This document shows, in pieces, positions 1,934 to 23,145 of a stretch of 32,000 nucleotides of DNA. The DNA is from Candidatus Omnitrophota bacterium (lineage in GTDB: Bacteria > Omnitrophota > Gorgyraeia > Zapsychrales > JANLHA01), in the NCBI GenBank assembly GCA_963662715.1, contig OY759724.1:330001-362000 (forward strand), in the 5' to 3' direction. Under the pieces are notes generated by a model. That model had not been told where the DNA came from and did not search any database. It was given only the letters and a program-made list of their open reading frames with translations. The translations under genes and the position numbers were made by a program. How positions within the stretch are numbered: the first letter of the stretch is position 1; each line of letters starts with the position of its first letter.

Positions 1934-2140
1934 TGTGCCTTCTTTTTCTTTTTAATTCGGGTTACGGTATGTGTCTAGGAATTCGTGCAATTACCTTATC
2001 AGGAATGGTCTCTTCAAAGGAGTAAGACATTGGCTCCCGCACATCCCCTCTTGAGAAACGTCCTGTTTGGTTAAGAAAACATAAATAATCTATGAGTGCA
2101 AAAATCATTAATATAATAATTCTTAGATATTAAAAAATCG

Positions 2141-3274
2141 TTATACCCGATCATGGCTTAAAGAATCATGAAAGTCCCGCAGAGTTTTAAATTTTTTGCA
2201 TATATTAGAATTGAATAATTTTTCATGATGAGCAACAAAGTCCTTATTGGAAATGTTGGGGTCAATGATGTTTATGATTTTTTTCTTATTTGAAGAACTT
2301 TGCCTAATCAAATTATTTAGCTCATTGTCAGAATTCATGAAGCTTTTCCCTACCAAAAACACTTCCTCCGCTTCTTCAAGTAAAGAATATAATTTTTTTA
2401 AGTGTTTGCGGAAGATGTCATATTTTCGATAAGTATATTTTTTTAAGTAATACGGCAAAATTAATGGAAAAGGTGTTTGTGCCTTTTTATCATTGAGTTT
2501 TTTCTGAAACATTTCAGAAGAAACGCCCGGAGACAGCAAATAAACGATTTTTTGGCCATAGCATGTGGGGTCTGTGAACCAGTTAAATGACCCGTGAATT
2601 TTTAGGAGTGTTATGCCATTCTTAGTCCCGACATCATCCGGGAGTACAATATCTGTATAGCCCAAACCATCAAAAGAATTAAAATTTAATAAAGATAGGC
2701 GATATAGTGTAATGTCACATATCTCATCATAGTTAAAGCTGACAACGGCATCGCCTTGTTGAAGCTCCTTAAACACAGACGAATGATAAGCACAATATCC
2801 ACTTTTTATAGAGCGATAACACCATTCATATATTGCCCTCTGAATAAAAGTCATCAGGTTTCTGGGGTTCCCTTCAATCATCAAATGCGGCTTTTCAATA
2901 AAATATTGAAATATTATTTTGGTAAGAGAAATATCTTCGGCGGAGGTTAAGTATTCTTTCAAGATAGGGTCGGTTTCTGCTAAAACTTCGAGACTGTTGA
3001 TAATTTTGCACCGATTTTCTAGGGAGGGGAAAACGACTTCTGGTTCGACAACTCGTGCGATATGCTCTACAGCACAGAGTAGTGTGTAAAATTTCTCTAT
3101 ATCGGTGGTTGTTTCTGTTCGTTGAATTAACTCAGTATAGGCAATGCGGACATTGTCAAGATTGCCGTAATTAAACAGGGTATAAAAATCTTTAAGTAAT
3201 GGCGGCTTAAAAGAGGGATTGATTGTTGAGGCCCCATAAGTGGCCCCTGCTCCGATAATGATAATCTTTCGCAT
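2141..3274 (-). CDS. Stand-alone SIR2-like (SIR2_2-type) protein, putative NADase effector
   Basis: 377-aa ORF with ATG at 3272-3274 and a TAA stop. It has the ordered SIR2 signatures: IIIIGAGATYGAS near the N-terminus, VVSFNYDEICD (NYD at 2726-2734), LLKIHGSFNWF (HG at 2591-2596) and a late VFLVGKSFMNSDNEL. It lies 69 nt downstream of the cyclase-like gene on the same strand. Confidence 0.7.
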   Translation of the reverse strand: MRKIIIIGAGATYGASTINPSFKPPLLKDFYTLFNYGNLDNVRIAYTELIQRTETTTDIEKFYTLLCAVEHIARVVEPEVVFPSLENRCKIINSLEVLAETDPILKEYLTSAEDISLTKIIFQYFIEKPHLMIEGNPRNLMTFIQRAIYEWCYRSIKSGYCAYHSSVFKELQQGDAVVSFNYDEICDITLYRLSLLNFNSFDGLGYTDIVLPDDVGTKNGITLLKIHGSFNWFTDPTCYGQKIVYLLSPGVSSEMFQKKLNDKKAQTPFPLILPYYLKKYTYRKYDIFRKHLKKLYSLLEEAEEVFLVGKSFMNSDNELNNLIRQSSSNKKKIINIIDPNISNKDFVAHHEKLFNSNICKKFKTLRDFHDSLSHDRV

Positions 3275-3343
3275 GTTTAATAATTTTTAGTTTTCTCCAT
3301 AAGAAATCCCTAAAACACTCACTTGGCGTTAAAATTCTAAACA

Positions 3344-4291
3344 TTAGTTTGTCACAACATTACGTTCATTTTTGCTTAAAAAATCAAGAGTTCTTAAATA
3401 TTTATTCTTTATCCTTTCTTCAGTTTGGTTTCTTTGCATAGACAAAAGAGCCTTACGGCAAGGTTTTTGCCCTTCTGTCGAGGGGCTATTCCCAATTATA
3501 AATGCAGGTAAGTTAATATAATCTGCCTCACTTTTAACTGTATATTTTTTAAGTGGAATTGGATAATACGCATAATTTAAACGTTCATCAGCAGGCAAAC
3601 CAAGTTCACCCAATCTTTTAACGGCTGTTTCAGTTAACATAAAACCAATCCAATCTTGCAATTCGCTAAACATATTAGCTTCATTTAGGGCTGCACCAAA
3701 GTACAAGCCACTTTCGTCGTCGGCGTAAAACTCTCCAAAGGACATGCTGCCTCGAACAGGAATCTTCTTTTTAATAAGTGACACAAAGAAATAACGGATA
3801 AATGAGTCTATTGCTCGATAGGCCAAATCAGTATCATCAATAGTGTAAATGATAAAAGAATCCGAGAATGTTATCTTTTTGAGTAAATGGCTATCAAAAG
3901 AATCTTTCTTAAAATGGTCAATGCTGTCCGCATACACTTCAAATACTTTTGTCCAATATGATGTGTTAATCAAATCTTTGATGCCTAATAAATCTAAATA
4001 CGCAACCCAACGATTGATATTAACGTAAGATTTCAGAGCAACTCCTTCTAGGCCTTTTTTGCGCTTAGGGACAGACTCCCTTTTCATCCATAAATCAAAC
4101 TCCTCGCTTGTTAACCCCATCCATTCTGCAATACTTTTCCCCATCCCATCTAAACCTTGTTGATACGCCAAGCGAAATGCTCCCCGGGCTTCGTCTTCAT
4201 TCTTAAAATGCCCATTCTTTTGCCAGAATTTTGCTGTGCTAACACCCCATCCACCGATTTCGATATTTTGTTTCATTCCACGCTGGTTCAT
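3344..4291 (-). CDS. Palm-domain nucleotide-cyclase-like protein (class III cyclase / GGDEF superfamily-like), with an N-terminal ~90-aa extra domain
   Basis: 315-aa ORF with ATG at 4289-4291 (alternative ATG at 4274-4276) and a TAA stop. The motif order fits a class III cyclase palm: VAYLDLLGIKDL (Asp at 3992-3994), KITFSDSFIIYT (3854-3868), IPVRGSMSFGEFY, then YFGAALNEANMFSELQ and IGFMLTE. The N-terminal part has an HTH-like stretch, KSIAEWMGLTSEEFDLWM. The coding call is solid; the fold assignment is by eye only. Confidence 0.5.
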   Translation of the reverse strand: MNQRGMKQNIEIGGWGVSTAKFWQKNGHFKNEDEARGAFRLAYQQGLDGMGKSIAEWMGLTSEEFDLWMKRESVPKRKKGLEGVALKSYVNINRWVAYLDLLGIKDLINTSYWTKVFEVYADSIDHFKKDSFDSHLLKKITFSDSFIIYTIDDTDLAYRAIDSFIRYFFVSLIKKKIPVRGSMSFGEFYADDESGLYFGAALNEANMFSELQDWIGFMLTETAVKRLGELGLPADERLNYAYYPIPLKKYTVKSEADYINLPAFIIGNSPSTEGQKPCRKALLSMQRNQTEERIKNKYLRTLDFLSKNERNVVTN

Positions 4292-4431
4292 ATAGAAGGC
4301 CCGTAAATAGATTCACTTCCTCATTTTAGTTACTAAGAATGTATCTTCTCCAAAAACTCCCCCAAAGTCCTCAAATAGTGACCCCATCGGTCAGCCATAG
4401 GTTTTATAAGATGAGTTTTCATAGTAGACTG

Positions 4432-4460
4432 ATTATACGTGAGATGGGTGGATAAATCAA
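4432..4460 (-). promoter_or_regulatory. Sigma70-like promoter upstream of the cyclase-like/SIR2 gene pair
   Basis: On the minus strand there is TTGATT (4455-4460), a 17-nt spacer and TATAAT (4432-4437). This sits about 135 nt upstream of the ATG at 4291 and downstream of the SIR2-TPR stop. Confidence 0.5.
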
Positions 4461-4520
4461 TAAGGAGGTCTTTAAGAAAAACAGGCAAATCCACCAATTA
4501 TTCATTTTGAACTTACGGGA

Positions 4521-6560
4521 TTATTCAACAACATTCTTTATATTTTCTGCGCGATCCCAGCATTCTATCGCTTCGCGATTCTTGCCCAAAGCGTAGTAAG
4601 TATTTCCTAAATTCGTAAGCCACATTTTCTCACCAGTCCTATCATCAATATTCCTTACTACCCGTAATGCCTGTTCATAATATTCTATCGCTTCTGTATA
4701 TTTACAAAGATCCTCACAGACAACTCCCAAATTACCAAGCCATGTCCCTTCAGTAGCCATATCGCCAATATCCCTTGCCATTTTTAATGCCTGCTTATAG
4801 CATTCTATAGCTTTATCATTCTCAGCAAGACTATTGTAGACAATCCCTAGACTACCAAGCCATATTGCTTCATTTGCTCTATCGCCAATATCTTTCGCTA
4901 TTTTTAATGCCTGCTCATAGTATTCTATGGCGTCGTGGTACTTGCCCATACTATGGTAGACATTCCCCAAATTACCAAGTATCGCCCCTTCACTTGGTTT
5001 ATTACCAATTTCCCGCATTATCTGTAATGCTTGTTCAAAATACTCTATTGCTTTGATAGACTCGTTAAGGCAATGACAAATTTTCCCCAGATTGCTAAGC
5101 TCTCTTCCTTCATTGACTTTATCACCAATCTTCCTGGATATTTTCAATCCCAGTTCATAATATTCCCTCGCTTTATGAAACTCGTTAAGTTCACAATAGG
5201 CATTTCCTAAATTGCTAAGTATCGCCCCTTCCTCAGGACAATGGCCAATCTTCTGTATTATTCGTAGTCCTCGGACATAATATTCTATAGCTTTGCGATA
5301 TTCACTAAGACCAGAGTAGATAATTCCCAAATTACCAAGACACGACCCTTCTCCGGTCCTATCACCAATATCCCTTGCTATACGTAGTGCACGCTCGTAA
5401 TAGATCATCGCTGACCTCAATTCTGAGATTGATATACAAATTGCTCCTAATATACACATTTTTTCAGCAGGAGATATCCGACTCACCCAACGTGTGATTT
5501 TATTCTTCCAAAGTATCTCCCGCTGGGCTATTTTTTTTTCATTAATTCCATCTAAATAAGACCCCTCACAGTTAACATCATTCCAAAGCCGCGTAATCAA
5601 CTCATTCGTGTTATATCCCAGTCTCACTCCTTCGAAATCTTTCAACGTGTTATGCACTTTATCAAAATGTTCCTCCCCCCTATGATTAACTCCCTGCAAA
5701 CGCTCCGCTGATAATTTTTGAACCCAAGGAGCATCAGTTGTATGCTCCACATAAATCACTCTTTTAGCTTTTACTTTTACGGCTTGTATTTGTGGAACCA
5801 AATCAAAGGCGTCGGAGCAGCTATACCCGAGGATAAGAACGATTTTGTGTCCGCCAGTGGAGAACATCTGGTTGATAACGTGATTTCGTTGTACAGCTAA
5901 CTTCTGACTAGCCACTTGCTTAAGTGTAATCGCAAGGTTCTTTTTATCATGAACACTGCCGTGAACTTTCACCAATTGGATGCCTTTACCATTCCACTCG
6001 ATTCTTTCAAGATCGTCCTCTCTGAAATATAGTGCATACCCAATCCCATCTTTTATCGATTCAAGTGCAAGAGCTTTTTCAATCAATTGGTCAAAATTTG
6101 TTGTCACTACAACCGTTATCTTTTGCTCTTTTAACAATCTAGCCAAAAAAATATGATTGGCGTTAGGCGTGACCGCATTGGGCTTCGGCTCATCTGCGTC
6201 ATAAACTGTGTAGAGCAATTCTGCGTTGCCTCCATCATTCAACTTTTCGACAAATAGTTCAAATGGCATCTTGTGGAATATTTTTCTAATCACTACTTCA
6301 GACATTCCTGTCGCTGCACTAATTTGGGTGATTAATTCCAGCTCTCTTTGGGCAGAACTCTTCTTGCCTTGCGTCATTTGATTGATTTCATTTATTCTTT
6401 CATCAGAAACATCATTCAACCGCAACAACATATACGGAACGAATTGAGCTATTACTGGCAGACCAGAATTAAAAGAAATTCCTGCCCCACAAAAGACAAC
6501 CAGTTCCTTTTTCTTTATTGCCATCGCTATTTCTGTTATGATTCCTTCTGTCTCATTCAT
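4521..6560 (-). CDS. SIR2-domain / TPR-repeat fusion protein (putative sensor-effector NADase)
   Basis: 679-aa ORF with ATG at 6558-6560, preceded by AAGGAA, and a TAA stop. The N-terminal half carries sirtuin-like signatures: VVFCGAGISFNSGLP (GAGIS at 6474-6488), VVTTNFDQLIEKA (6090-6104) and LVKVHGSV (HG at 5958-5963). The C-terminal ~310 aa form eight 40-aa TPR units of the pattern AIEYYEQALKIAKDIGDR..EG..LGNLG.VY. No Walker A/P-loop is seen between the two halves. Confidence 0.8.
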   Translation of the reverse strand: MNETEGIITEIAMAIKKKELVVFCGAGISFNSGLPVIAQFVPYMLLRLNDVSDERINEINQMTQGKKSSAQRELELITQISAATGMSEVVIRKIFHKMPFELFVEKLNDGGNAELLYTVYDADEPKPNAVTPNANHIFLARLLKEQKITVVVTTNFDQLIEKALALESIKDGIGYALYFREDDLERIEWNGKGIQLVKVHGSVHDKKNLAITLKQVASQKLAVQRNHVINQMFSTGGHKIVLILGYSCSDAFDLVPQIQAVKVKAKRVIYVEHTTDAPWVQKLSAERLQGVNHRGEEHFDKVHNTLKDFEGVRLGYNTNELITRLWNDVNCEGSYLDGINEKKIAQREILWKNKITRWVSRISPAEKMCILGAICISISELRSAMIYYERALRIARDIGDRTGEGSCLGNLGIIYSGLSEYRKAIEYYVRGLRIIQKIGHCPEEGAILSNLGNAYCELNEFHKAREYYELGLKISRKIGDKVNEGRELSNLGKICHCLNESIKAIEYFEQALQIMREIGNKPSEGAILGNLGNVYHSMGKYHDAIEYYEQALKIAKDIGDRANEAIWLGSLGIVYNSLAENDKAIECYKQALKMARDIGDMATEGTWLGNLGVVCEDLCKYTEAIEYYEQALRVVRNIDDRTGEKMWLTNLGNTYYALGKNREAIECWDRAENIKNVVE
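4524..5460 (-). repeat. Coding tandem repeat, ~120-nt period (eight TPR units of the SIR2-TPR gene)
   Basis: DNA blocks recur every ~120 nt, for example ccaatatcccttgc..ttttaatgcctgc..tattctat.gc. They correspond to the 40-aa units CLGNLGIIYSGL.., ILSNLGNAYCEL.., ELSNLGKICHCL.., ILGNLGNVYHSM.., WLGSLGIVYNSL.., WLGNLGVVCEDL.. and WLTNLGNTYYAL.. Confidence 0.7.
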
Positions 6561-6777
6561 TTATGCTTTCCTTTTTCTGGTAACATCGAAAACTTTTTCC
6601 GTCTATTCCAAAATTTTTAAACCAGTTACCCAATTTCAACAATCCGTTTTAAGACGCTTTCCGTAGTCCTCCTGTAGCGCGTCCATCGCCCAGCCTATGA
6701 TCCTCTTTTCAAGAAAAAAAATTGTTTGTTTTTATTCAGGCATCACTCATCATATTCTTTTTCATTCTTAGTAGTCT

Positions 6778-6945
6778 TTAAATGTTTGTTCTACTTTTAA
6801 TAAAATTTTCTAAGTCTTTTGGATAAATCCTCCACTTGCCAATCTTTATTGCATTTAACCGTTTTGTCTAGATAAGGTCTCTTATCTAGTCTTCGGTGAC
6901 GCAGAGTTTTTCAACCACTTCTTTAACAGTGAGGTAGTTACGCAT
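6778..6945 (-). pseudogene. Excisionase/AlpA-type HTH (HTH_17-like) gene interrupted by two in-frame TAG codons
   Basis: The minus-strand frame reads MRNYLTVKEVVEKLCVTED*IRDLI*TKRLNAIKIGKWRIYPKDLENFIKSRTNI*. It matches the Xis/MerR-type pattern LTVKE..E.L.V....I..LI....L.A.KIG..WRI...DLE.FI. The in-frame TAGs are at 6886-6888 and 6868-6870, and there are no frameshifts. Confidence 0.6.
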
Positions 6946-7014
6946 GTCTTACATTGAGTTGACCTCGTTTTTTTGACAAATTTATCAAATTACTATTTAT
7001 TCCTATTAAATTTT

Positions 7015-7044
7015 ATTGTATGCTCGTTACTCTTATAAAGTCAA
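7015..7044 (-). promoter_or_regulatory. Sigma70-like promoter upstream of the Xis-like pseudogene, followed by an operator-like palindrome
   Basis: On the minus strand there is TTGACT (7039-7044), an 18-nt spacer and TACAAT (7015-7020). The near-palindrome TTGACAAATTTATCAA (6973-6988) lies between this promoter and the ATG at 6945. Confidence 0.35.
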
Positions 7045-7902
7045 TGGAATTCAAGTACTATATTGTTTTATCTCTTCAAATTCCTGCATGAATTCTCTGA
7101 ACCGTGCCAGTTGCAGACGTTCTTCATCTAGTCGTACTATGCAGTGAGTTTGCGTAGCGATAAGAATCTAAGGCTGACTGGATCATTCTTATTGCTTTTA
7201 AAAGAATCTTTAATCTGTTCGGGGAGAGCTAGTGTTCCGAGAATTCTTGCTATGCATGACTAGTCTTCTCCAGTGTAACCGCAAGTTCTCTAACGACGCT
7301 GTTTATGCCGTGTGCTTCTTTAATCCTCACGTAATATTCTGTTTTCTCAAGGGAAAACTATTCTAGGAGTCTTATGTGGGTTTGATACATATTTCAGACT
7401 CTTTTTTGATTGTATCAATGTGGCCTAAGTCTTCAGAGGGGGGCAGAGACGACAACACTACTTATGATTTTTATTAACGATGTAAAAAAAAATTCAACCC
7501 AATAGGTGCGTGACTGTGTGAAGAAACTTTTTTTGAGGTGCTGGATGAATTCAATCATATCTGATGGAGAAAGGAGTATCTTCCCTCCATCAGAAAATTG
7601 CTTTCCGTTTTGCGAAAAAACGACTTGTGTTACACAAGTACGCTGGTTGCAAAACGGGCACAACTGGGGTTAATCACTTCAGTAGAAACCGCACAGTTCT
7701 GAGCCATAATTACATGCTCTTTAACTTTCCTTAACATCTTAAAATTTACAAAATCACGGGAGGGAATCTATTTCTATTCCACCACATTTCCACCACATAA
7801 AATCGATTCAAATTGAAAAAACGCGAATGTCATGGCTGACCATGGCTTGCAGTAACTTGTAATGTAAATCATTGATTTATATAGAGAAATGATATTTTTG
7901 GC

Positions 7903-7932
7903 ACAAAATAATGGGGTATCTTGCGATACCCC
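7903..7932 (-). terminator. Rho-independent terminator of ssrA
   Basis: Perfect 8-bp stem GGGGTATC / GATACCCC (7913-7920 and 7925-7932) with a 4-nt loop (GCAA on the minus strand). On the minus strand it is followed by ATTATTTTGTGC. It starts 11 nt after the tmRNA 3' end. Confidence 0.7.
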
Positions 7933-7943
7933 AAAACATAAAG

Positions 7944-8333
7944 TGGAGGTGCGGGGAATCGAACCCCGGTCCTTCAGCTGCTTTCCGTAAGCCTCTACAT
8001 GCTTAGTCTGCCGTTTACAATCACCTGAAAATCTCCGGCAAACAGGATATCCTCAGGCTATCCTTCTTAAGTTTCGCCGTGGCCCCGAAGGCCCTGGCCA
8101 CAGCTAGCCTGCTGAATGTCCTCTTAACAGCCCACAGGCCTGACGGTTAAAAGGGCCTCTCTTTTTTATTAAGCGAGGACTGGTTCGCCAGCAAAAATCG
8201 GTTCTACGATTTCGTTGGCTTTAGCGAGAATAGATTCGCCATTTGTGTGTGCCCGGATGATTAACGAGGCCAACCAGGCATCCTCGGCATGCCACTTACA
8301 GTCTCTCAACTGAAGTCGAGACCAATCACCCCC
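7944..8333 (-). ncRNA. ssrA: tmRNA (transfer-messenger RNA)
   Basis: On the minus strand the 5' end GGGGGTG pairs with the 3' end CACCTCC, including a G3:U pair, and is followed by discriminator A. The T-arm is CGGGG-TTCGATT-CCCCG. An internal tag ORF, GCC AAC GAA ... GCT TAA TAA (8219-8166), encodes ANEIVEPIFAGEPVLA plus a double stop. The gene lies directly downstream of smpB. CCA is not encoded. Confidence 0.9.
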
Positions 8334-9850: not shown

Positions 9851-9964
9851 AGTAAAGGATTATAACAACTTAACCTGTATTGAGCAACGGATTATTGGTA
9901 AGAGGCGATATTGGCAGCATTTTCCGGGTCCTTTCTCGGACCGCGCTTAAAAGAAGGGAAAATA

Positions 9965-14424: not shown

Positions 14425-17400
14425 TTAATTATAATTCAGCATGCTGAGCTTATCATGTTCGTCATCGAAAAAGAACTGAATATCCGACTCCGCCGGTTCC
14501 TGCTGAGGCTTCCGGTCTGCGCCTTTTTCCGCCTCTGTGCCCCGGCCCCGGGTTGTCCCTCGGGCCGGAACCGCATCCTCGGCACTCATGCCCAGCAGCA
14601 TCGGCAGGTTGGGAATCGGCGTAATGTTGATAATAACCGGCAAGAACCCTTCTATATTCATATTCTGAATCGGCTGTTGCTGAACAGGTAAAGGAACACC
14701 GCTTCCGTCCCGTCTGATCTGCAGGTTCAAAAGCGCCGGATTAAGATCGATACCACCAAGCGGCGAAGAAGTCGCCGGCGCGGCTCCTATATTCGCTGCC
14801 AGCCGTTGAACGGTATTGATAACCTGGCCCACGCCGCCCTTACTGTTCTTTTCTGTTCTCATAAGTTTGCTGAGGTCACGTTTCGCCTGTTTGGTCGAGA
14901 TGCTGCCATCAGCGACAGAGACCAGAAGCTCCCTTGTCCCTTTATTTTTCAGATTAAATTTCGTCATAGCCTTGTCAACGGCTTCGATCGGAGAAGAAAC
15001 GGCCGCGCTGGCGAGTTCAATGACTTCCGCTGTTGCCAACAGGTTTTGCACGGCAGATTCTTCATTTACCCTGTCAAGGACTTCCGTAATGTCCCGGTCG
15101 ACCCAATCTCCAGGTAATGTCACAGCAACATCAATCCCGGCCTCCTGCCATTGAAAAGCGACACCGGTTTCATCGGCCCTTACCCCGTCATAACGCAAAA
15201 CCAAGTTTGCGCCTTCGACAAAAAAGTAGGTCCTCTTCCAAGGGAGGTCCTCCCCTTCATCAAATTCCGGCAAATTGGTTTTTACGGTCAGCTGTTCAGA
15301 CAGCTTAAAGGGCACGGACAAATCGGTCAAACGTGTCTCCAGCTGACTCATGGTGTTGATCACAGATTCTAAGCGCGTCGCCTCTTCGATCGGGATGTCC
15401 CGGGCTAATTCAATCTGCAGCTCTTTGGCCGGGAGAATCTCTCCGACCTGCCGTAGAACATCCGCGACCTGATTCCGGACTGTCTCTAGCCTGGCGCGGT
15501 CCTTTTCCACCTCTATTTCAACCTGGGCCAAAAGCTGTTCGGCCTGGGTTAACAAGTCAGCCACCTTTTCTTTTTCATTCGCGGCAAACTGAATAGGAGA
15601 AGAGGCCCCCAACGACATGAAGTCAATTAACGGGAACCGTTCCGGACGCCCGGCATCAAGCATGAGCAGCTGCAAATCCCGGTTCTCATCCTCCGTCACC
15701 CGGACAGCCTCATTAAACACCCGGGCGGCCATAACTAATATTCTCTCAGCCAGAGCCCTGTCAACACCGTCAATTTCCATTAATTTATTTTCAGCTTCTG
15801 TTCTCCGGTCAGCCTTCTCTAATTCTATCGCCTCCTGGATGGCCTGGTAAGCATCGGCCGTCACAAGGTTATAGCCTAAGGCCAAACTGGCCGGAAGCAG
15901 CCTGAACATGGCCTCTCCGACAGGGTAAGCTCCGTCCATCAGCTTGATGCTGAGGATATGGGCGGCTTTGGCCAAAGGAGGATTCTGTTCAATAAAGACG
16001 ATCTGATTGGCCAATAAAGCCCGCATAGCGGCATGAATCCAGCCGTTCTGGGCCCCGTTGACCTGCTTATCAATATCCACGATTTGATTAATAAGCTGTA
16101 CGTTCTCTTCGGCTAACCCAATCGTTGAGAGTATCGGGGAAGACACGCCTAAATTCGTATAATCCAAGAACTCGATATACTTCGCCTCAACCCCGGTAAG
16201 AGCTACGGCAAAAGGCCCGTCTGTAGGAGTCCAGGTTAACAAGACATCCTGAAGAGCAAAAGGATTAGCATACTCAAAATCCCCTTGTATTTCCCGGGAT
16301 ACCAGCACAGTTGCATCATCCGGAGCCCTTAATTCCAGACGTGTTGTACTATCAGGCTCATGGACATTAACATACAAAACATTTCCGTCATGCTTGAATA
16401 AGATCCTTCTTGAAGCGCCCTGATTATTGTCAAGGTTCCGTCCCTCGCTGACCAGAGGCTCTCCCAGCACGGCAAAATTCCCCAGCTGGCTTGCTGCTTC
16501 ATAATTCTCAACTTCGTTATATTTCGTTCTTGCCCGCATCACGGCCGCCTGCCATTCCCCTGCCGAAGCAGCCGTCTCCAAGGCCTCGGCCAGGACAAAC
16601 GGACTCTCTGACATCCAGTCGCCGGAAAGGGTTAATTCTTTTATATCCGTCTTGTCGTCCCTGGCGCGTAAAACAAGCCGGGTCGTCCCTTGTGTATGGT
16701 CCCGGTGAGCATAAAGGATACGTCCGTCATGCCCGAACAGGGCTCTCAAAGACGGGCCGTCATTTTCTGCCCAATTCTGTCCTTCCCGGACCATTGTTTT
16801 AACCGGAGAAGCAGCCAACAACGACTCTCCGATATAGGGGTCATGCTGAGCATGCAGGTCTCTGCCTGCCTCCATATTAGGGATTCCATTCTCGTCTGTC
16901 CTCAGCAAGGCAGCTCCCAGACCGGTTCCAGGCCCGATATAAAGAATGCGGGCATTGTCGATTCTTTGCCCGGACAACTCATATAATGCTGTGGCCCCGG
17001 CAAAAGCATCGTTCATCCACACCACGTTATAAGGTTCTCCTAATAAACCCTGCAACGTGCTGGCAGGGTTCACACCGAAAAATTGCGGGCGGTTGGGCCA
17101 GCTTTCTTGAGCGATAGCGCCATCAGCCTCTTTTTTCCCCGGATGCCCGACCCCGATTTCAAAGGAAACCTCGTATTGTTCAGTCTCTAATTCATTCCGT
17201 AAAGTATTAATAAGAGGAAGCAGTGCGCTGTAATATTCTTCCGGTTGAACTTGTGCGATATCACGGTCTAATACAAACCGCTGCATCCCTCCTACAAATT
17301 GCACAAAATTTCCGTTTTCATCAAACTGGATCCCCTGCATCTTGGCAGAGGTCCCGCCCACATCAACACCGATCACAACCTTGTTCCGTCTAAGGTCTTG

Positions 17401-20400
17401 ATCAACCAGCAATGCTGCTCCTAATATCCCTGCTTCTTCCGCAACCATTTGATTTTCAGCTGAAAGGATCGGCAGTATCGTAACGCCGGTTCCCAACACG
17501 CTTCGGATCTTCTGTTCCAGGATATTGCGGATAAAAGGATTATTGCTAATAGCCCCGCCGATCTCAATAACGTTAATGCCTTTCCACTCATCTTCGATGG
17601 CTCTTAAAGCTTCTCCATCCTGACTCCGCAAGGCCCCTTCCATCAGCAGAGACGCAAACTGCGCATAAACACCCCCGACAAATTCCAGCACCTGAGTGAT
17701 AACATCTGCGGCCTCGGAATCGGGATAAGTTTGCAAGACCCAGCCCATAAACCTGGTATCCAGATTCCCCTGATATTCGGCCAACAGGTCCGTAAACAGG
17801 TCCTTGTTTTCCTTAAGGAGCTGTTCATTCACCTGGGCGAACATCCGGTTAATCGCCGTAGTCGAAGAAAGGTTCTCCGTTGTTAATCTTTCTGTTGTAA
17901 AAGACACCAGCACTTCACGCCCGTCCCGCAGGGAAATGGCTACAGGGATGGCTTCTAACGGCGAAGAACCCAAGTTATTTTTTAAAGCGACAATATCTTT
18001 CACGGAATAGGGCTTCATGAAAATATCCGTAAAAAGGCCGCCTTTTAAACCTGTCGCGGCATCAACCTGCTGAAGCTCCTCCAGATTCGGGGCAAAACCC
18101 GTCGTGAGGATGATGGGGAGATCTCTTACCGCCCGGATCTCTCTGGCAAGTTGTTCGCCGGTCATCTGAGGCATGACGAAATCTGTCACCACCAGATCAA
18201 TATCCGGATTCTCGTTAAACACTCTCAAGCCTTCTTCTCCGTTATCGGCGCGAATGACTTCCGCTTCGCCGAAAACCGCACCGAAGAGCTGCGCAGCCAC
18301 ATCTCCGACCATCTCTTCATCGTCCACAACAAGAATTTTCTTGATGGGCGTCGAAACCACGGCAGCAGTGGTGGTGGTAATTTTATCTTTTAAAGCGGTT
18401 AACTGCTCAAACTCATAAGGTTTATCCAGGACTTCATCAAATAATCCGCCCTTTAAACCGGTCGCTTCATCCACGGCCGTTAATGTGTCGTCTATCGTCC
18501 CTGACAACAAGACAACCGGGACATTGTTTCCTGCGGCCCTCAACTCACGGGTGAACTGATCTCCGGTCATAACAGGCATTTGCAAATCCGTTACAACCAG
18601 GTCAAAATCCCCGGACTCCCGGAAGGTCTGAAGGGCTTCCTGCCCGTTGTCTGCGGTAACGACTTCCACGTCCCCGAACACGTCTTTCAAATCTTCGCTC
18701 ACCAGGAGCAAAATGGATTTTGAATCATCGACCAGGAGGATCTTCTGAATCGGAGAAGCCACCGGGGCCGCTCTCAAGGAAGACTCTACCTGCGAGATAA
18801 ACGCCTGCAAGTCTTCTGAATATTTGTTCGCCTGAATGATTCCCGACAATATTTCACTGACTTCTGTCTCTGTCGCCTGCGCGGCGGCAACATAAGCCCC
18901 TTCTATCTCAAAGAATACTTCGGCCACGATTTCCCCTGTCCTCCCATCATATAATTTATGAGAAATCTGGTTGGCCCCAGCAACCTCTTCCCCGATAACC
19001 ATTACAGGGTTATTATCCCGCATAACCAATATGGTACGGGCAAAGGATTGCGGATGATAAGTCCGGATGATACCCGTCTGCCCCTGGGCCATGGTCAACA
19101 ATTCCAGCCCCGTTGTATCGATGACCGGGGATGAAGCAGGCGGCGTTGTCCTTACGAGCTCTAAGGCTCTAGCCGCATCCTCTTCCGTAATTCCAATCAA
19201 ATCATTACGGAAAGAAACCCCGGCGCTTCTTTCTGCATCTTCCAAGCTCCCTGCCGTAAAATTGAACTTCCGCAGATCCTCCAGCCGAAAAGTAAAATAC
19301 TGCGATATTTGGGCCGCTGTCGGAACCCGCCCTTGACTTGCTTCTATATCCATCCATTGCCGAAACAACTCAATATCATCCCTATCCACCTCATATTCGC
19401 CCGTTACCATTCTCTCTATGGCAGCCGGCAACCCCGTCATCCATCCCCGATATCTCGGATGACTCAAGATATACTTCTCTACCCCTACGGGCAGAAACGT
19501 TATGTCTTTTTCCGGGTCGGAGGAAAAATGCTCCCGGATATTCGTGGAGGATGTCCCGAACAAATTAATATGTCCTATCGGCCTTATAAATCCTCTTGCC
19601 ATGTATTCCTTCATTTGAGCCACTTCCACCGGCATAGGCAGACTTTCAAATAATTCCCTGAAGTTGAAGGCCAACATCATGTCGATATTATTTCTTTGAA
19701 GATGGTCGGCCAACTCCTCTTTCATCCGGTCCATCTTTAAGACCGTATCCGGCTGAGGATGATCCCCGTCCATTTTAGGAGTCCTGTACCCATCGGTATC
19801 CATGTCGCTTGACGGGGCATAAACATGCATATGGTCCCCGCCGACCGCTGTATAGACCCACGTTGTCTTTCCTGTTCTGCCCCCGTTGATTTCAATCAGT
19901 TTCTTGTACTTCGTTTCGCCATCCGCCTCTGAACCGTTCAAAACTTTTGACAAGACAAGAAGTCCGTCAAAAAGATCCACCCATTCCTGCGCCATTTCAT
20001 CGCGCTCCTCAAAAGTCGGGTTCAGCCCCTTCTTCTGCTTGCGGTAATCAAAGGCATGGTTGACGACACCAACCTGGGAAATTTTCAATTGCGCCATGGC
20101 CCGCAAAACCGGTTCGAACTGGCCGAAATGCAGAGGATTCAACGCTGAGGCATAAACACCGACGATCGTATCCCCGGTATCTGTTTCCTGCCCCGTAAAC
20201 TCCGCGTCCTGTTCACTCCAGCGCACCTGCTGCAATTGCATCTCCCCGTTCATCATATGGACGCCGATTTCCCATAAAGATTCCTTCACCTTTCGTGTCC
20301 ATTCACCGGCCAATTGCTCGTTTCGACCCGGTTCCTGACGCAGACTCCGCCTCACAAGATTATCAAAGACCTGTTCCACGTCCACCCGGATCTCTTTGTT

Positions 20401-23145
20401 CACGTTCGGAAAAATGCTTTTGGCATATTCATATTCCTTAACCCGGTTCTCTTCATGCGTCCCTTGATTCGCGGTGTAGACCAAAGAACGCTCAAGCATC
20501 CGGTAAGGGTTCCCTTTTTCCTCTATCATGCGCCTGAACCCGCTTTCCATAACGATCTTCTTCCGTCCCGCCTCGACAACAAGGGCCATACCAAACGTGA
20601 CATCTGTCCCGCTGTCGATTTCCTCTACCGTGGTAATATCGATCTGGCGTCTTTCTTTATTTAAAAAGTACGTACGGATTTCACTCAGTTCTGCCAACTG
20701 AACTTCCCGGCGTTCCTGCCCGGCCTGTTCATAAGCCCATACCTGATTCAGAACTTCTCCCATACCCATCCGCTGATTGTAGCTGTTGCCGAACATCACT
20801 CCGTCCCGGTACGGGATCCCGTCCGGGTTGATTCCGTCCTCTAATTCAACTAAAATATCTCTCCAATCCCGTTTCGTTTCATCACCGGCCCTGGCTTTCA
20901 TCATCATAATCGGCGTAATACCATACCCGAAAAACTCATGGCTCGTTGTGCCTTCAGCTTCAGAATAAACGCTCACCAACTGAAACAGGTCATCAAAATT
21001 TATTGTTCTGGTCCTTCCTGTCTCCGTCTCCACAACATTATCCTCTTTGGCGTGGATAAAATTCGCCAATGAATCTTCCCGGATACTCCGCGGCGCCCCC
21101 AGCGGTGAGGAGACGGCCGTCTGATCAAGCAGCATGAGCTCGTCTTCGTCAAGCTGCTGCAGCAGGGCCGTTTCCGCATCTGACAGGGCCTGGGAAACCT
21201 CCGGCCCCTTTTGAAGAAGCTGTGTGGCGGCCTCTATTAAAACGCCCAACTGTTCCGGCACCTTGGCGAAAGTGTCGTCCGGCAACGCGTCGCTTCTTAT
21301 CAAATGCAGCAAACTTAAAATCTTCCGCTCTCTTCGCAGTTCACTCCTGGCCACAGCCCGGTTTTCATCAGCCAGAGCTGACCGGTCTCCGTAATTTTGG
21401 GCCGCTTTCTCCAACCCGGCGATATCCTCTTGGTATAACTGCATAATTTCATCGGGAATGGTAACCGCACCCCCACGCGCCCTCACAATAGTTTCCAAAG
21501 CTTCAAACACGTTCATCGGCGCTACGCCTGTCATCAACTCTTCCAAACGCCCTTCTTCCTGCGGCGCTAAGGTTGATTTAAGAATATCGGACATAATAAG
21601 GGCGAGACGCTTTGTTCTGGTTCTGGTAAAGGTCTTGGAAGCATATTCCAGCAAACGCCGGCTCTCCTCGGTCAGGTTCTGGAAAGATTCTATTTTCACC
21701 AGGTCATTAAGAGATACTCCCGCCTGAATCTTTTCGGCAATATCCGCACTCACGCGGCCGATCAGGGCCAACCCGTCGTCAACGGTGATCCGCTGGGCCG
21801 CGGCTGATGTGACATACCCCAGATACTGGCGGGCTAACTGCGTGTTCTGTTCGATCACATCGGCAAAATTCGATATAGGGGAAGCCACAATAGCGCTCTG
21901 CGCCGACAATGTTTCAGAAGGGTTCTCCGCCAGGATAGCCGCCACCTGCACCACCGGGCTTGAAACACTCATCCCGGCATCGATCCTTGCTCTTAAAGGA
22001 GACGACGGCGGGACATTACGCAGTTCGACGGACGTGATCGAGCTGGAGACCTCGGAAGCATCAACCCCGCCGGAAAAATATTTTCGCGGGATGACTTTTT
22101 TCGTCGACATATCATAATCTTCCCGGATATAGTCATAAACGCCTTTTTTAAATGCCGCCAGGTACTGTTCATAAATTTTCTGTTTAATTTCCTTGTCGTT
22201 AACGTCCACGCCTTTCACCTTGCCTTTGTTGACATAGACTTGTCCAAGGAGACTCGCTCTTAAATTCTCTTTATACCAGGTCGCTAAAATCAGGGAATTG
22301 AAAATCTGCCGCAGATTAGCAAAATTCTTGCCCTCATTGACTTCCTTTTCTATTTCCGGCAACAAAACTTCCCGGACAACATCCGAAGAAACCTTGCTAA
22401 GAGTCTTTACATAATCCTGGGTGATCTTTGTGGTTCCTAATTTTTTATTATCCAGGTTCCTTTCCAAAGCTAAGTAATCCTCTTCCAGCATAACTTTCAG
22501 ATGACTGTCAACCACAAAAGCGCTGCCGTTATGCTCAACAACCAAGGCGTCTTCCGGGATAATCCATATTTTGTTGAACGTATTGATCGGAATATTTGTC
22601 GTACCATATTCTTTTTGTGCGCGGTCATAGACTCTTTGCCAAAATTCCTGGCCGAGATCATCTTCCGGATAGATCATCGAGGCCGTTAACTGCTTCAGCA
22701 TATAGTCCTGAGCCAGGAGGTCGCGGCCCATTTCTGTCATGCTGAAACCTTCGGGAACAATACGGTCGCTTTCATAAGGAGAAAGGTTAACCCACAAATC
22801 TTTTTCCGGGATCGTCAGGGCGGCGAGAAAATATTTAATGAGTTTGCTGGATTCTGCTTCGAGTTCTTCTCCGGTCAATTGGTCGTTTCCGGAATCGATA
22901 ATAAAATCGAATTTTAAAGGATTTTCCGGGTCGATCTTCACCCCCTTCAAACAGGCCGGGGCATAAATATCGCTTTTCATAACCATGGCCCCGGGCATCG
23001 GCAGATCCAAAACCGTCGGGGCTGGATCAGCCGCGGATACCGGCGCGGGTGGAATGATGAGGCTTATCAGAAATGAATAACTGATAAACGAGACTAAAAT
23101 ACGATACGACCAATGATCACGACTATTCCGGAAATAGTTAAACAT
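14425..23145 (-). CDS. Giant (2,906 aa) mosaic protein: signal anchor + conserved N-module + NadD-like nucleotidyltransferase + 2 receiver domains + ASKHA/ROK-like kinase segments + unknown repeats + conserved GGIDLNP C-module
   Basis: Uninterrupted 8,721-nt ORF with ATG at 23143-23145, preceded by AGGAGG (23156-23161), a TAA stop and a strong terminator. Domain signatures and their coordinates are given under findings. Confidence 0.9.
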   Translation of the reverse strand: MFNYFRNSRDHWSYRILVSFISYSFLISLIIPPAPVSAADPAPTVLDLPMPGAMVMKSDIYAPACLKGVKIDPENPLKFDFIIDSGNDQLTGEELEAESSKLIKYFLAALTIPEKDLWVNLSPYESDRIVPEGFSMTEMGRDLLAQDYMLKQLTASMIYPEDDLGQEFWQRVYDRAQKEYGTTNIPINTFNKIWIIPEDALVVEHNGSAFVVDSHLKVMLEEDYLALERNLDNKKLGTTKITQDYVKTLSKVSSDVVREVLLPEIEKEVNEGKNFANLRQIFNSLILATWYKENLRASLLGQVYVNKGKVKGVDVNDKEIKQKIYEQYLAAFKKGVYDYIREDYDMSTKKVIPRKYFSGGVDASEVSSSITSVELRNVPPSSPLRARIDAGMSVSSPVVQVAAILAENPSETLSAQSAIVASPISNFADVIEQNTQLARQYLGYVTSAAAQRITVDDGLALIGRVSADIAEKIQAGVSLNDLVKIESFQNLTEESRRLLEYASKTFTRTRTKRLALIMSDILKSTLAPQEEGRLEELMTGVAPMNVFEALETIVRARGGAVTIPDEIMQLYQEDIAGLEKAAQNYGDRSALADENRAVARSELRRERKILSLLHLIRSDALPDDTFAKVPEQLGVLIEAATQLLQKGPEVSQALSDAETALLQQLDEDELMLLDQTAVSSPLGAPRSIREDSLANFIHAKEDNVVETETGRTRTINFDDLFQLVSVYSEAEGTTSHEFFGYGITPIMMMKARAGDETKRDWRDILVELEDGINPDGIPYRDGVMFGNSYNQRMGMGEVLNQVWAYEQAGQERREVQLAELSEIRTYFLNKERRQIDITTVEEIDSGTDVTFGMALVVEAGRKKIVMESGFRRMIEEKGNPYRMLERSLVYTANQGTHEENRVKEYEYAKSIFPNVNKEIRVDVEQVFDNLVRRSLRQEPGRNEQLAGEWTRKVKESLWEIGVHMMNGEMQLQQVRWSEQDAEFTGQETDTGDTIVGVYASALNPLHFGQFEPVLRAMAQLKISQVGVVNHAFDYRKQKKGLNPTFEERDEMAQEWVDLFDGLLVLSKVLNGSEADGETKYKKLIEINGGRTGKTTWVYTAVGGDHMHVYAPSSDMDTDGYRTPKMDGDHPQPDTVLKMDRMKEELADHLQRNNIDMMLAFNFRELFESLPMPVEVAQMKEYMARGFIRPIGHINLFGTSSTNIREHFSSDPEKDITFLPVGVEKYILSHPRYRGWMTGLPAAIERMVTGEYEVDRDDIELFRQWMDIEASQGRVPTAAQISQYFTFRLEDLRKFNFTAGSLEDAERSAGVSFRNDLIGITEEDAARALELVRTTPPASSPVIDTTGLELLTMAQGQTGIIRTYHPQSFARTILVMRDNNPVMVIGEEVAGANQISHKLYDGRTGEIVAEVFFEIEGAYVAAAQATETEVSEILSGIIQANKYSEDLQAFISQVESSLRAAPVASPIQKILLVDDSKSILLLVSEDLKDVFGDVEVVTADNGQEALQTFRESGDFDLVVTDLQMPVMTGDQFTRELRAAGNNVPVVLLSGTIDDTLTAVDEATGLKGGLFDEVLDKPYEFEQLTALKDKITTTTAAVVSTPIKKILVVDDEEMVGDVAAQLFGAVFGEAEVIRADNGEEGLRVFNENPDIDLVVTDFVMPQMTGEQLAREIRAVRDLPIILTTGFAPNLEELQQVDAATGLKGGLFTDIFMKPYSVKDIVALKNNLGSSPLEAIPVAISLRDGREVLVSFTTERLTTENLSSTTAINRMFAQVNEQLLKENKDLFTDLLAEYQGNLDTRFMGWVLQTYPDSEAADVITQVLEFVGGVYAQFASLLMEGALRSQDGEALRAIEDEWKGINVIEIGGAISNNPFIRNILEQKIRSVLGTGVTILPILSAENQMVAEEAGILGAALLVDQDLRRNKVVIGVDVGGTSAKMQGIQFDENGNFVQFVGGMQRFVLDRDIAQVQPEEYYSALLPLINTLRNELETEQYEVSFEIGVGHPGKKEADGAIAQESWPNRPQFFGVNPASTLQGLLGEPYNVVWMNDAFAGATALYELSGQRIDNARILYIGPGTGLGAALLRTDENGIPNMEAGRDLHAQHDPYIGESLLAASPVKTMVREGQNWAENDGPSLRALFGHDGRILYAHRDHTQGTTRLVLRARDDKTDIKELTLSGDWMSESPFVLAEALETAASAGEWQAAVMRARTKYNEVENYEAASQLGNFAVLGEPLVSEGRNLDNNQGASRRILFKHDGNVLYVNVHEPDSTTRLELRAPDDATVLVSREIQGDFEYANPFALQDVLLTWTPTDGPFAVALTGVEAKYIEFLDYTNLGVSSPILSTIGLAEENVQLINQIVDIDKQVNGAQNGWIHAAMRALLANQIVFIEQNPPLAKAAHILSIKLMDGAYPVGEAMFRLLPASLALGYNLVTADAYQAIQEAIELEKADRRTEAENKLMEIDGVDRALAERILVMAARVFNEAVRVTEDENRDLQLLMLDAGRPERFPLIDFMSLGASSPIQFAANEKEKVADLLTQAEQLLAQVEIEVEKDRARLETVRNQVADVLRQVGEILPAKELQIELARDIPIEEATRLESVINTMSQLETRLTDLSVPFKLSEQLTVKTNLPEFDEGEDLPWKRTYFFVEGANLVLRYDGVRADETGVAFQWQEAGIDVAVTLPGDWVDRDITEVLDRVNEESAVQNLLATAEVIELASAAVSSPIEAVDKAMTKFNLKNKGTRELLVSVADGSISTKQAKRDLSKLMRTEKNSKGGVGQVINTVQRLAANIGAAPATSSPLGGIDLNPALLNLQIRRDGSGVPLPVQQQPIQNMNIEGFLPVIINITPIPNLPMLLGMSAEDAVPARGTTRGRGTEAEKGADRKPQQEPAESDIQFFFDDEHDKLSMLNYN

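Follow-up and report, generated by a model that had tools for sequence, protein, structure and literature searches.

The open reading frame (ORF) at 3344..4291 on the minus strand of the window, that is the whole 32,000-nucleotide stretch of contig OY759724.1 from a Candidatus Omnitrophota bacterium that was analysed here, encodes a protein of 315 amino acids (hereafter the target) which, as judged from its structural model, is a real two-part protein, a small N-terminal module fused to a cyclase-type palm. Together with its relatives, the target forms a separate and so far unannotated branch within a known fold superfamily, in which the composition of the active site is unusual and the fusion of domains is new. 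Function was deduced from fold, conservation and neighbourhood only, and on this basis we tentatively favour, with a probability of about 0.42, an autonomous two-metal enzyme that uses nucleoside triphosphates (NTPs) and that would, in its fused form, serve as a self-contained defence cassette with the N-terminal module as its input. The general picture is that of a very large family with a cyclase fold and an intact metal site, in which the rest of the active site has been rewritten and which none of the annotation libraries recognises; the reaction could yield a new product, act on a new substrate or deplete NTPs.

Layout and fold of the protein

The ATG start of the target agrees with the N-termini of its homologues (MNQR...), and across 3344-4291 the plus strand does not contain an open frame, with stops throughout. 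The gene is organized as follows:

3344..4291, minus strand: target ORF with N-terminal module, linker, cyclase-like core and C-terminal helical hairpin (ORF list, AlphaFold2 model)
4067..4249, minus strand: N-terminal module, residues ~15-75, a small all-helical domain with stand-alone relatives of 65-115 residues
3488..4024, minus strand: class III cyclase-like palm core, residues ~90-268 (AlphaFold2 confidence >90, Foldseek, family search)
3992..3994, minus strand: codon of D100 at the end of beta1, predicted equivalent of the first metal-binding Asp
3860..3865, minus strand: codons of S143-D144 in the beta2-beta3 hairpin, predicted equivalent of G-D with the second metal Asp
3752..3754, minus strand: codon of R180 at the start of beta4, predicted equivalent of the phosphate-binding Arg of RIGxHxG
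3371..3478, minus strand: C-terminal helical hairpin, residues 272-307 (AlphaFold2 helices 272-287 and 292-307), with K297-Y298

The peptides quoted in an initial annotation of this DNA, which had been made from the letters alone, are all present in the translation, namely KSIAEWMGLTSEEFDLWM (residues 52-69), VAYLDLLGIKDL (96-107), KITFSDSFIIYT (139-150), IPVRGSMSFGEFY (177-189) and YFGAALNEANMFSELQ (197-212). An AlphaFold2 model of the target, built from 24 homologues, reached a mean predicted local distance difference test (pLDDT) score of 82.9, with values above 90 in the core. It starts with beta1 (residues 91-101), an alpha-helix (112-129), a beta hairpin (137-142/145-150) and a further helix (155-174) and continues with strands 179-191 and 196-198, a helix (200-211), more strands and the C-terminal helical hairpin, for which there is no counterpart in the canonical cyclase domain. 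When this model was compared with the PDB using Foldseek, 91 matches were obtained at E<=1e-3, and the top 50 of them were class III adenylyl/guanylyl cyclases only (E 5.6e-6 to 2e-4, probability 1.0), headed by Rv1264 (E 5.6e-6) and followed by CyaC, soluble guanylyl cyclase, rhodopsin-guanylyl cyclase, Rv1900c and the adenylyl cyclase C2 domain. Target-normalised template-modelling scores (TMt) were 0.5-0.65 for the class III cyclase matches, and the fold matches in BFVD were cyclase/GGDEF-type proteins. Because the top-50 PDB matches are all class III cyclases, the agreement in fold exceeds chance, and the assignment of the target core to the class III nucleotidyl cyclase palm fold is well supported by the model. 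Both the strand/helix order and the palm/cyclase fold that had been proposed from the sequence are seen there.

At the sequence level, the relationship is far less apparent. The target does not match any model at E<=1 in Pfam, NCBIfam or PADLOC, sequence and profile searches of the PDB (phmmer/hmmsearch) returned nothing, and its sole library match is the unannotated phage family phrog_23933 (7e-9). Out of 110 diverse family members, none matches PF00211 at E<=0.1, and the same holds for GGDEF or any consistent Pfam family. The family profile was also aligned by hhalign with adenylyl cyclase AC5-C1, the sequence of which was checked against 1CJK, and with a profile made from a bacterial PF00211 enzyme that we met in one of the loci surveyed (L066) and its relatives. 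Neither alignment was significant (probability <1 %; 0.3 % for the cyclase profile), a negative result that is weakened by the low diversity of the cyclase profile. The non-significant alignment is still colinear over 160 columns and consistent with the positions of secondary structure elements, and it pairs D100 with the Asp of FADIxG, S143-D144 with G-D, R180 with the Arg of RIGxHxG and G199 with the Gly of GDxVNxAxR. Since profile similarity is not significant, the residue equivalences with cyclases rest on fold and position. In this sense the motif-to-motif correspondence with cyclases drawn in the initial annotation is borne out, that is by secondary structure position and by a colinear alignment that lacks statistical significance.

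Active-site conservation and kinship with known palms

When the core of ~230 residues was used in an exhaustive profile search, 7121 representatives of clusters at 50 % identity were recovered with E<=1e-3 and 2661 with E<=1e-10. Nearly all core-family members are stand-alone proteins of 220-250 residues. They are found in bacteria, in archaea (Methanosarcina, an Asgard archaeon) and in a few phages and plasmids, with the RefSeq plasmid copies annotated as ‘hypothetical protein’. Conservation was assessed in two sets of sequences, one of 130 representatives and the other of 99 homologues that had been collected independently from genomes and metagenomes (median identity 35 %). D100 is kept in 124/124 representatives and 97/97 independent homologues and D144 in 129/129 and 97/97, respectively, such that both presumed metal ligands are invariant. 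Thus neither of the two outcomes that would have refuted the initial annotation, a missing palm fold or unconserved Asp positions, was observed. S143 (128/129 and 90/97) and R180 (118/130 and 93/97) are almost as strictly retained, and G103, P178, G181 and G199 are nearly invariant in both sets. In addition, the family has conserved residues of its own, i.e., W95, F142, F146, Y189, E210, Q212, W214, G216 and the pair K297-Y298, with K297 present in 121/128 and Y298 in 125/128 representatives.

The residues that complete the catalytic center in canonical cyclases present a different picture. Position 203, the site of the catalytic Asn, is occupied by I, V or L in the homologues and Asn is found in the target alone, while position 207, the site of the catalytic Arg, varies between E, K, R and D. 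The reading of the ‘AALNEAN’ region as the counterpart of the corresponding cyclase motif thus holds for G199, which fits the cyclase Gly, and fails for N203, the alignment of which with the catalytic Asn is specific to the target. At the base-specifying sites, residues vary at 138-140 and are hydrophobic (I/L/V) at 196, with some uncertainty as the alignment is gapped there; both sites are unconserved in homologues, and the lack of a pair of the Lys/Asp or Glu/Cys type that was noted from the single sequence holds for the family. A second, C2-like family copy within about 10 kb was found in 0/112 loci.

As read from alignment and model, the predicted active site is a ‘C1-like half site’, in which metal and phosphate ligands are kept and the contributions of the second subunit are replaced. 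With no complementary copy in the 112 loci, the protein would, if active, have to rely on invariant residues of its own. Judged by sequence, the strict retention of two carboxylates and an arginine by hundreds of diverse family members is the hallmark of an NTP site that depends on metal and is functional. The strict conservation of the Asp-Asp-Arg set argues against a dead sensor palm, and the missing Asn/Arg pair argues against a canonical cyclic nucleotide monophosphate (cNMP) cyclase. The absence of this pair and of the specificity residues suggests a reaction other than canonical 3',5'-cNMP synthesis. GGDEF, Cas10 and mCpol palms are also devoid of the Asn/Arg pair and the specificity residues, and they catalyze intermolecular nucleotidyl transfer (PMC12657218).

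Among characterized proteins, the class III adenylyl and guanylyl cyclases (PF00211; Rv1264, 1Y11; CyaC, 1WC0; AC5-C1/AC2-C2, 1AZS) are the best structural matches. They share the beta-alpha-beta-beta-alpha-beta palm with extra strands, the two metal Asp and the phosphate Arg appear to be placed alike as far as positional equivalence in alignment and model goes, and motif 1 is similar (YFDLLGF in the target versus FADIxGFT). The target has a residue content similar to that of C1 in the mammalian cyclase heterodimer. On the other hand, PF00211 and sequence profiles do not detect the target, S-D takes the place of the cyclase G-D, the catalytic Asn is replaced by I/V/L, the Arg site is variable and neither type of base-specifying pair is present, whereas the invariant E210/Q212/W214 and the C-terminal hairpin with K297-Y298 are additions of the target family. 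The target has none of the sensor domains that bacterial cyclases typically carry, and a C2-like partner was not encountered in the 112 loci.

Similarities also exist with mCpol/OptS of the Panoptes system, which is likewise a minimal stand-alone palm of ~200 residues from the GGDEF/Cas10 palm superfamily that occurs in a defence context and has a two-Asp site. The mCpol/OptS active site is centred on two Asp residues, Asp6 and Asp57 in KpOptS, and OptS is always encoded in a two-gene operon with the nucleotide-binding membrane effector OptE (PMC12657218). An operon with a nucleotide-binding effector of this kind, either 2TM-beta/SAVED-like or CARF-TM, is not matched by the target family, which is without a conserved neighbour in 58 + ~55 loci; structurally the target fits class III cyclases best, and it does not match the mCpol model in Pfam or PADLOC. 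With regard to GGDEF proteins (PF00990), the palm is homologous, the cyclase Asn/Arg pair is missing as in the target family, and the hairpin F-S-D-(T/S)-F of the target can be read against G-G-D/E-E-F with the acidic residue and the Phe in common; yet 0/110 family members match PF00990, the target hairpin lacks the signature Gly-Gly, and fold matches were limited to weak ones in BFVD (E 0.06-0.2), well below those to class III cyclases. The cyclases of the Pycsar and Pucsar systems (PycC, PucC) have class III-type folds as does the target and are small soluble enzymes in anti-phage immunity. Pycsar cyclases adjoin transmembrane or TIR effectors that are activated by their cyclic nucleotide product, and the canonical catalytic set is retained in PycC. 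Pucsar cyclases are likewise encoded beside transmembrane or TIR effectors activated by their product. The target differs from both in having neither a linked transmembrane/TIR effector nor a PADLOC match nor the canonical catalytic set.

The N-terminal module and genomic contexts of the fused gene

The N-terminal module (residues ~15-75) is missing from most core-family members. A profile search with the module only retrieved 210 proteins, almost all of 65-115 residues and 60-75 % identical to the module in the window; because most of these relatives stand alone, the module represents an independent, strongly constrained small-protein family of at least 210 clusters. The notion of a separable extra N-terminal domain is thereby supported, and in one palm subfamily a copy of this small, highly conserved cellular protein is fused to the core. 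The module does not match any Pfam family at E<=10. Modelled alone from 113 sequences, it adopts a predicted five-helix bundle (pLDDT 78.6) for which Foldseek did not find a significant match in the PDB (best E 3.0). The label ‘helix-turn-helix (HTH)-like’ that the initial annotation had attached to this stretch, and with it a role as an HTH DNA-binding domain, is not supported by these comparisons, in which neither an HTH profile (Pfam) nor an HTH fold (Foldseek) was recognised. Where they lie in ordinary chromosomal regions (L066, L156-L161), stand-alone genes for the module are monocistronic; they occur within mobile or integrative elements as well (L067 and L068, the L067 copy directly upstream of putAbiC). 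In one protein (P0027), the module is fused to a weak YozE_SAM_like domain. Its hidden Markov model (HMM) did not detect a copy in nSTAND, SIR2 or other proteins flanking the fusion genes; as the module is undetectable in these neighbours, a model in which it pairs the target with them as a shared, EAD-like adaptor is unsupported and was discarded.

The surroundings of the family were surveyed in 54 genome loci from many phyla and 80 metagenome loci, in which the three neighbours on either side were clustered and subjected to bulk Pfam and PADLOC scans. Across these loci, the core-only gene does not have a conserved neighbour, and a search for a conserved partner by the same means was equally fruitless, with type I restriction-modification genes alone recurring at about 6 loci. 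Core-only genes are often solitary, with long intergenic stretches on either side, and both housekeeping genes and genes of mobile elements or defence are found next to them. The fusion form, for its part, was found in defence islands in 5/5 distinct contexts (raw count):

Context 1 (L001, L002, L064, L077): hsdR/M/S, target, nSTAND5 NTPase of 1237-1278 residues, DUF4062/PDC-S60-like protein
Context 2 (L063): methyltransferases, target, split Dsr1 (PADLOC 7.5e-113)
Context 3 (L071-73): Avs3a (2.6e-206), target, proteins of 368 and 181 residues, SIR2-like protein
Context 4 (L078): AbiV (5e-22), target, unknown protein of 529 residues
Context 5 (window): SIR2-TPR, target, SIR2

In context 1, the start of the target gene overlaps the hsdS stop by 4 nucleotides in L001 and L064, and the hsdR-hsdM-hsdS/target/nSTAND5/DUF4062 array (e.g., L001 6901-13672) may be a composite type I restriction-modification/STAND island module. 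In context 2, a 303-residue SIR2_2 protein and a 1075-residue protein that matches residues 513-1225 of Dsr1 are encoded directly downstream of the target homologue (L063 6704-10839). The distribution of the gene over phyla, plasmids and phages is patchy and cassette-like. A phage origin was considered and dismissed, the core having been found in 2 IMG/VR loci and 1 GenBank phage contig only and the N-terminal module in neither an IMG/VR locus nor a GenBank phage contig. On a Methylobacter plasmid (NZ_CP091425.1), a gene annotated as the RNA-guided endonuclease IscB (L069 4079-5368) precedes a family member by ~1.6 kb, among insertion sequence elements.

In the window, the target gene is flanked on both sides by SIR2-like genes of the same orientation and is located in an island of low G+C content that abuts the 3' end of the transfer-messenger RNA (tmRNA) gene (34-40 % in ~2000-7900 compared to 46-55 % around). 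The features of this locus are:

2141..3274, minus strand: downstream neighbour, 377 residues, SIR2/AbiH-like (PADLOC SIR2 4.4e-9; Pfam AbiH 4e-4, below cutoff)
4292..4402, minus strand: conserved 111-nucleotide leader travelling with the gene (DNA identity with L071)
4336-4398, minus strand: putative 21-codon mini-ORF MADRWGHYLRTLGEFLEKIHS inside the 111-nucleotide leader (two independent sequences)
4432..4460, minus strand: weak candidate for a sigma-70-like promoter, TTGATT-17-TATAAT, upstream of the cassette (consensus scan, 10/12; the total of such sites is not above shuffle expectation)
4521..6560, minus strand: upstream neighbour, 679 residues, SIR2_2 with TPR array (Pfam SIR2_2 4.4e-12, TPR_12 8.9e-59)
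7941..8333, minus strand: tmRNA gene (ARAGORN; Rfam 173 bits), adjoining smpB

The 679-residue neighbour also gives ThsA/SIR2-type matches in PADLOC. GAGxS, (T/F)N(F/Y)D and HGS motifs are present in the translations of both SIR2-like genes, those of the 377-residue protein reading GAGATYGAS, SFNYD and KIHGS, and the description of the neighbours as two NADases is thus fair at the domain level. A periodicity of 120 nucleotides in the DNA at 4646-5395 (5 copies, 65-71 % identity) corresponds to the TPR repeats of the SIR2-TPR gene.

Key information on the unit of transfer came from the homologue in L071, the protein of which is 94.6 % identical to that in the window and has unrelated flanks. 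DNA identity between the two (92.5 %) is confined to 3349-4402, with an abrupt start 111 nucleotides upstream of the start codon and an end at the stop codon. The exchanged unit is thus a single-gene cassette of ~1.05 kb. In L071 the mini-ORF (9899-9961) has the translation MDARWGHYLRTLGEFLERIHS; the differences are synonymous or conservative, and the stop is kept. That leader and mini-ORF are a relic of another family copy was suggested by a likeness to the C-terminal KYLRTLDFLSK of the target, an idea that was given up because the likeness is unsupported by the family HMM. The functional link with the two NADases that had been implied in the initial annotation is not supported, given that even a 95 %-identical copy has entirely different neighbours. 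Since this copy has unrelated flanks and shares a single-gene cassette with the window, the flanking SIR2 genes are probably co-residents of the island, i.e., independent defence genes rather than obligate partners.

Weighing the possible functions

The mechanism that we favour can be outlined as follows. The core would be an active two-metal enzyme of the cyclase/nucleotidyl-transferase type with a product other than 3',5'-cAMP/cGMP, and it would work as a homo-oligomer through the family-specific residues. The fused form would be a horizontally exchanged single-gene cassette acting in anti-phage defence, in which the N-terminal module may provide the input as a sensor or regulatory part and the palm the output, either yielding a nucleotide product or consuming NTPs, while the flanking SIR2 genes would act independently within the tmRNA-associated island. 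Several observations weigh against this proposal. The transition-state Asn/Arg pair and the base-specifying residues are missing, and such a loss cripples catalysis in canonical cyclases; similarity to cyclases at the level of sequence profiles is not significant (hhalign probability <1 %); a nucleotide-sensing effector linked to the target was not found; PADLOC does not hold a model for the target protein; the association of the fusion form with defence islands is based on five independent contexts only; and core-only members often reside among housekeeping genes (GAPDH, ABC transporter, SelR), from which it follows that the whole family need not be defensive.

The first of these points is the main argument for a non-catalytic pseudo-cyclase, in which the palm would bind metal-nucleotide only and act as a sensor, a regulator or a dominant-negative module. 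Inactive cyclase paralogues such as C2-type and pseudo-cyclase domains usually lose exactly the residues of the metal and phosphate site. In the target family, by contrast, both metal Asp are 100 % invariant over >200 diverse sequences, the phosphate Arg is kept too, and most members are stand-alone proteins of 230 residues without an output domain that could be regulated. Precedent for a sensor palm exists, as catalytically inactive cNMP cyclase domains do occur in bacterial conflict systems and may merely bind nucleotide (Kaur et al. 2020, PMC7159879). Taken together, we regard this explanation as unlikely. A role outside defence, either as a housekeeping or regulatory enzyme of nucleotide signalling or as a DNA-binding regulator acting through the N-terminal module, with an incidental location in islands, is about equally doubtful. 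It would agree with the metabolic genes that often adjoin core-only relatives, with the monocistronic stand-alone module gene in ordinary chromosomal contexts, with the HTH-like stretch originally perceived and with the position of the gene on the 5' side of varied defence genes, where BrxR/CapW-type regulators are also located. The occurrence of all five fusion contexts in defence islands and the patchy, cassette-like spread speak against it, as do the lack of a match of the module to an HTH or other DNA-binding fold and the absence of the module from most family members.

Still less probable, in our assessment, is that the target is a signal synthase and that the SIR2-type NADases beside it are activated by its nucleotide messenger, according to the logic of Pycsar, Thoeris or CBASS. 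SIR2-like genes are indeed located no more than three genes away from the fusion form in 3/5 arrangements (window, L063/L076 and L071) as opposed to 0/~100 core-only loci, the genes are co-directional with short gaps and without a terminator-like site between the target and the 377-residue gene, and catalytic motifs are kept in both SIR2 neighbours. Nevertheless, BLASTP did not reveal homology beyond the domain level between the SIR2-type neighbours of different loci, the SIR2 protein in L063 is half of a split Dsr1 and thus of a known autonomous system, and the remaining fusion contexts are without SIR2. Furthermore, Pfam and PADLOC do not report a SLOG, CARF, SAVED or cNMP-binding sensor domain in the SIR2 neighbours, and DNA shared with the 95 %-identical copy that has other flanks is limited to the single gene. 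In a further and likewise improbable reading, the fusion form would be a single-polypeptide ‘integrated decoy’ immune sensor, in which the N-terminal module baits a phage factor and engagement switches on the unconventional two-metal palm. If this were true, the palm would be an unrecognised branch of the cyclase/GGDEF superfamily that makes a new nucleotide product or drains NTPs, and the core family of ~7000 clusters would be a major unexplored class of prokaryotic nucleotide-converting enzymes.

Cyclase and palm enzymes make the nucleotide signals of CBASS, Pycsar, type III CRISPR and Panoptes immunity, and literature searches did not bring to light a described cyclase-fold stand-alone defence gene that matches the target. 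An autonomous two-metal enzyme encoded on a one-gene cassette that moves between defence islands would be testable by cloning ~1.1 kb, and the presence of a domain taken from a small, conserved cellular protein gives a hint of how sensing might work. Should the family turn out not to be defensive, a known activity would still annotate thousands of ‘hypothetical proteins’.

Some further features of the window deserve mention. The predicted tag of the tmRNA is GESILAKANEIVEPIFAGEPVLA. The 3' end of tmRNA genes is a classic island site; an integrase or an att repeat of the tmRNA 3' end was not found within the window. Between the SIR2-TPR gene and the tmRNA gene, a 1.4-kb stretch (6561-7942) is without an ORF of more than 76 residues. 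The rest of the window is an ordinary Gram-negative chromosome. It includes, at 14425-23145 on the minus strand, an ORF of 2906 residues, about 2600 of which are unannotated, and the two stretches that Pfam does recognise in it are response-regulator receivers, with the best receiver match at residues 1469-1584 (E 4.9e-29).

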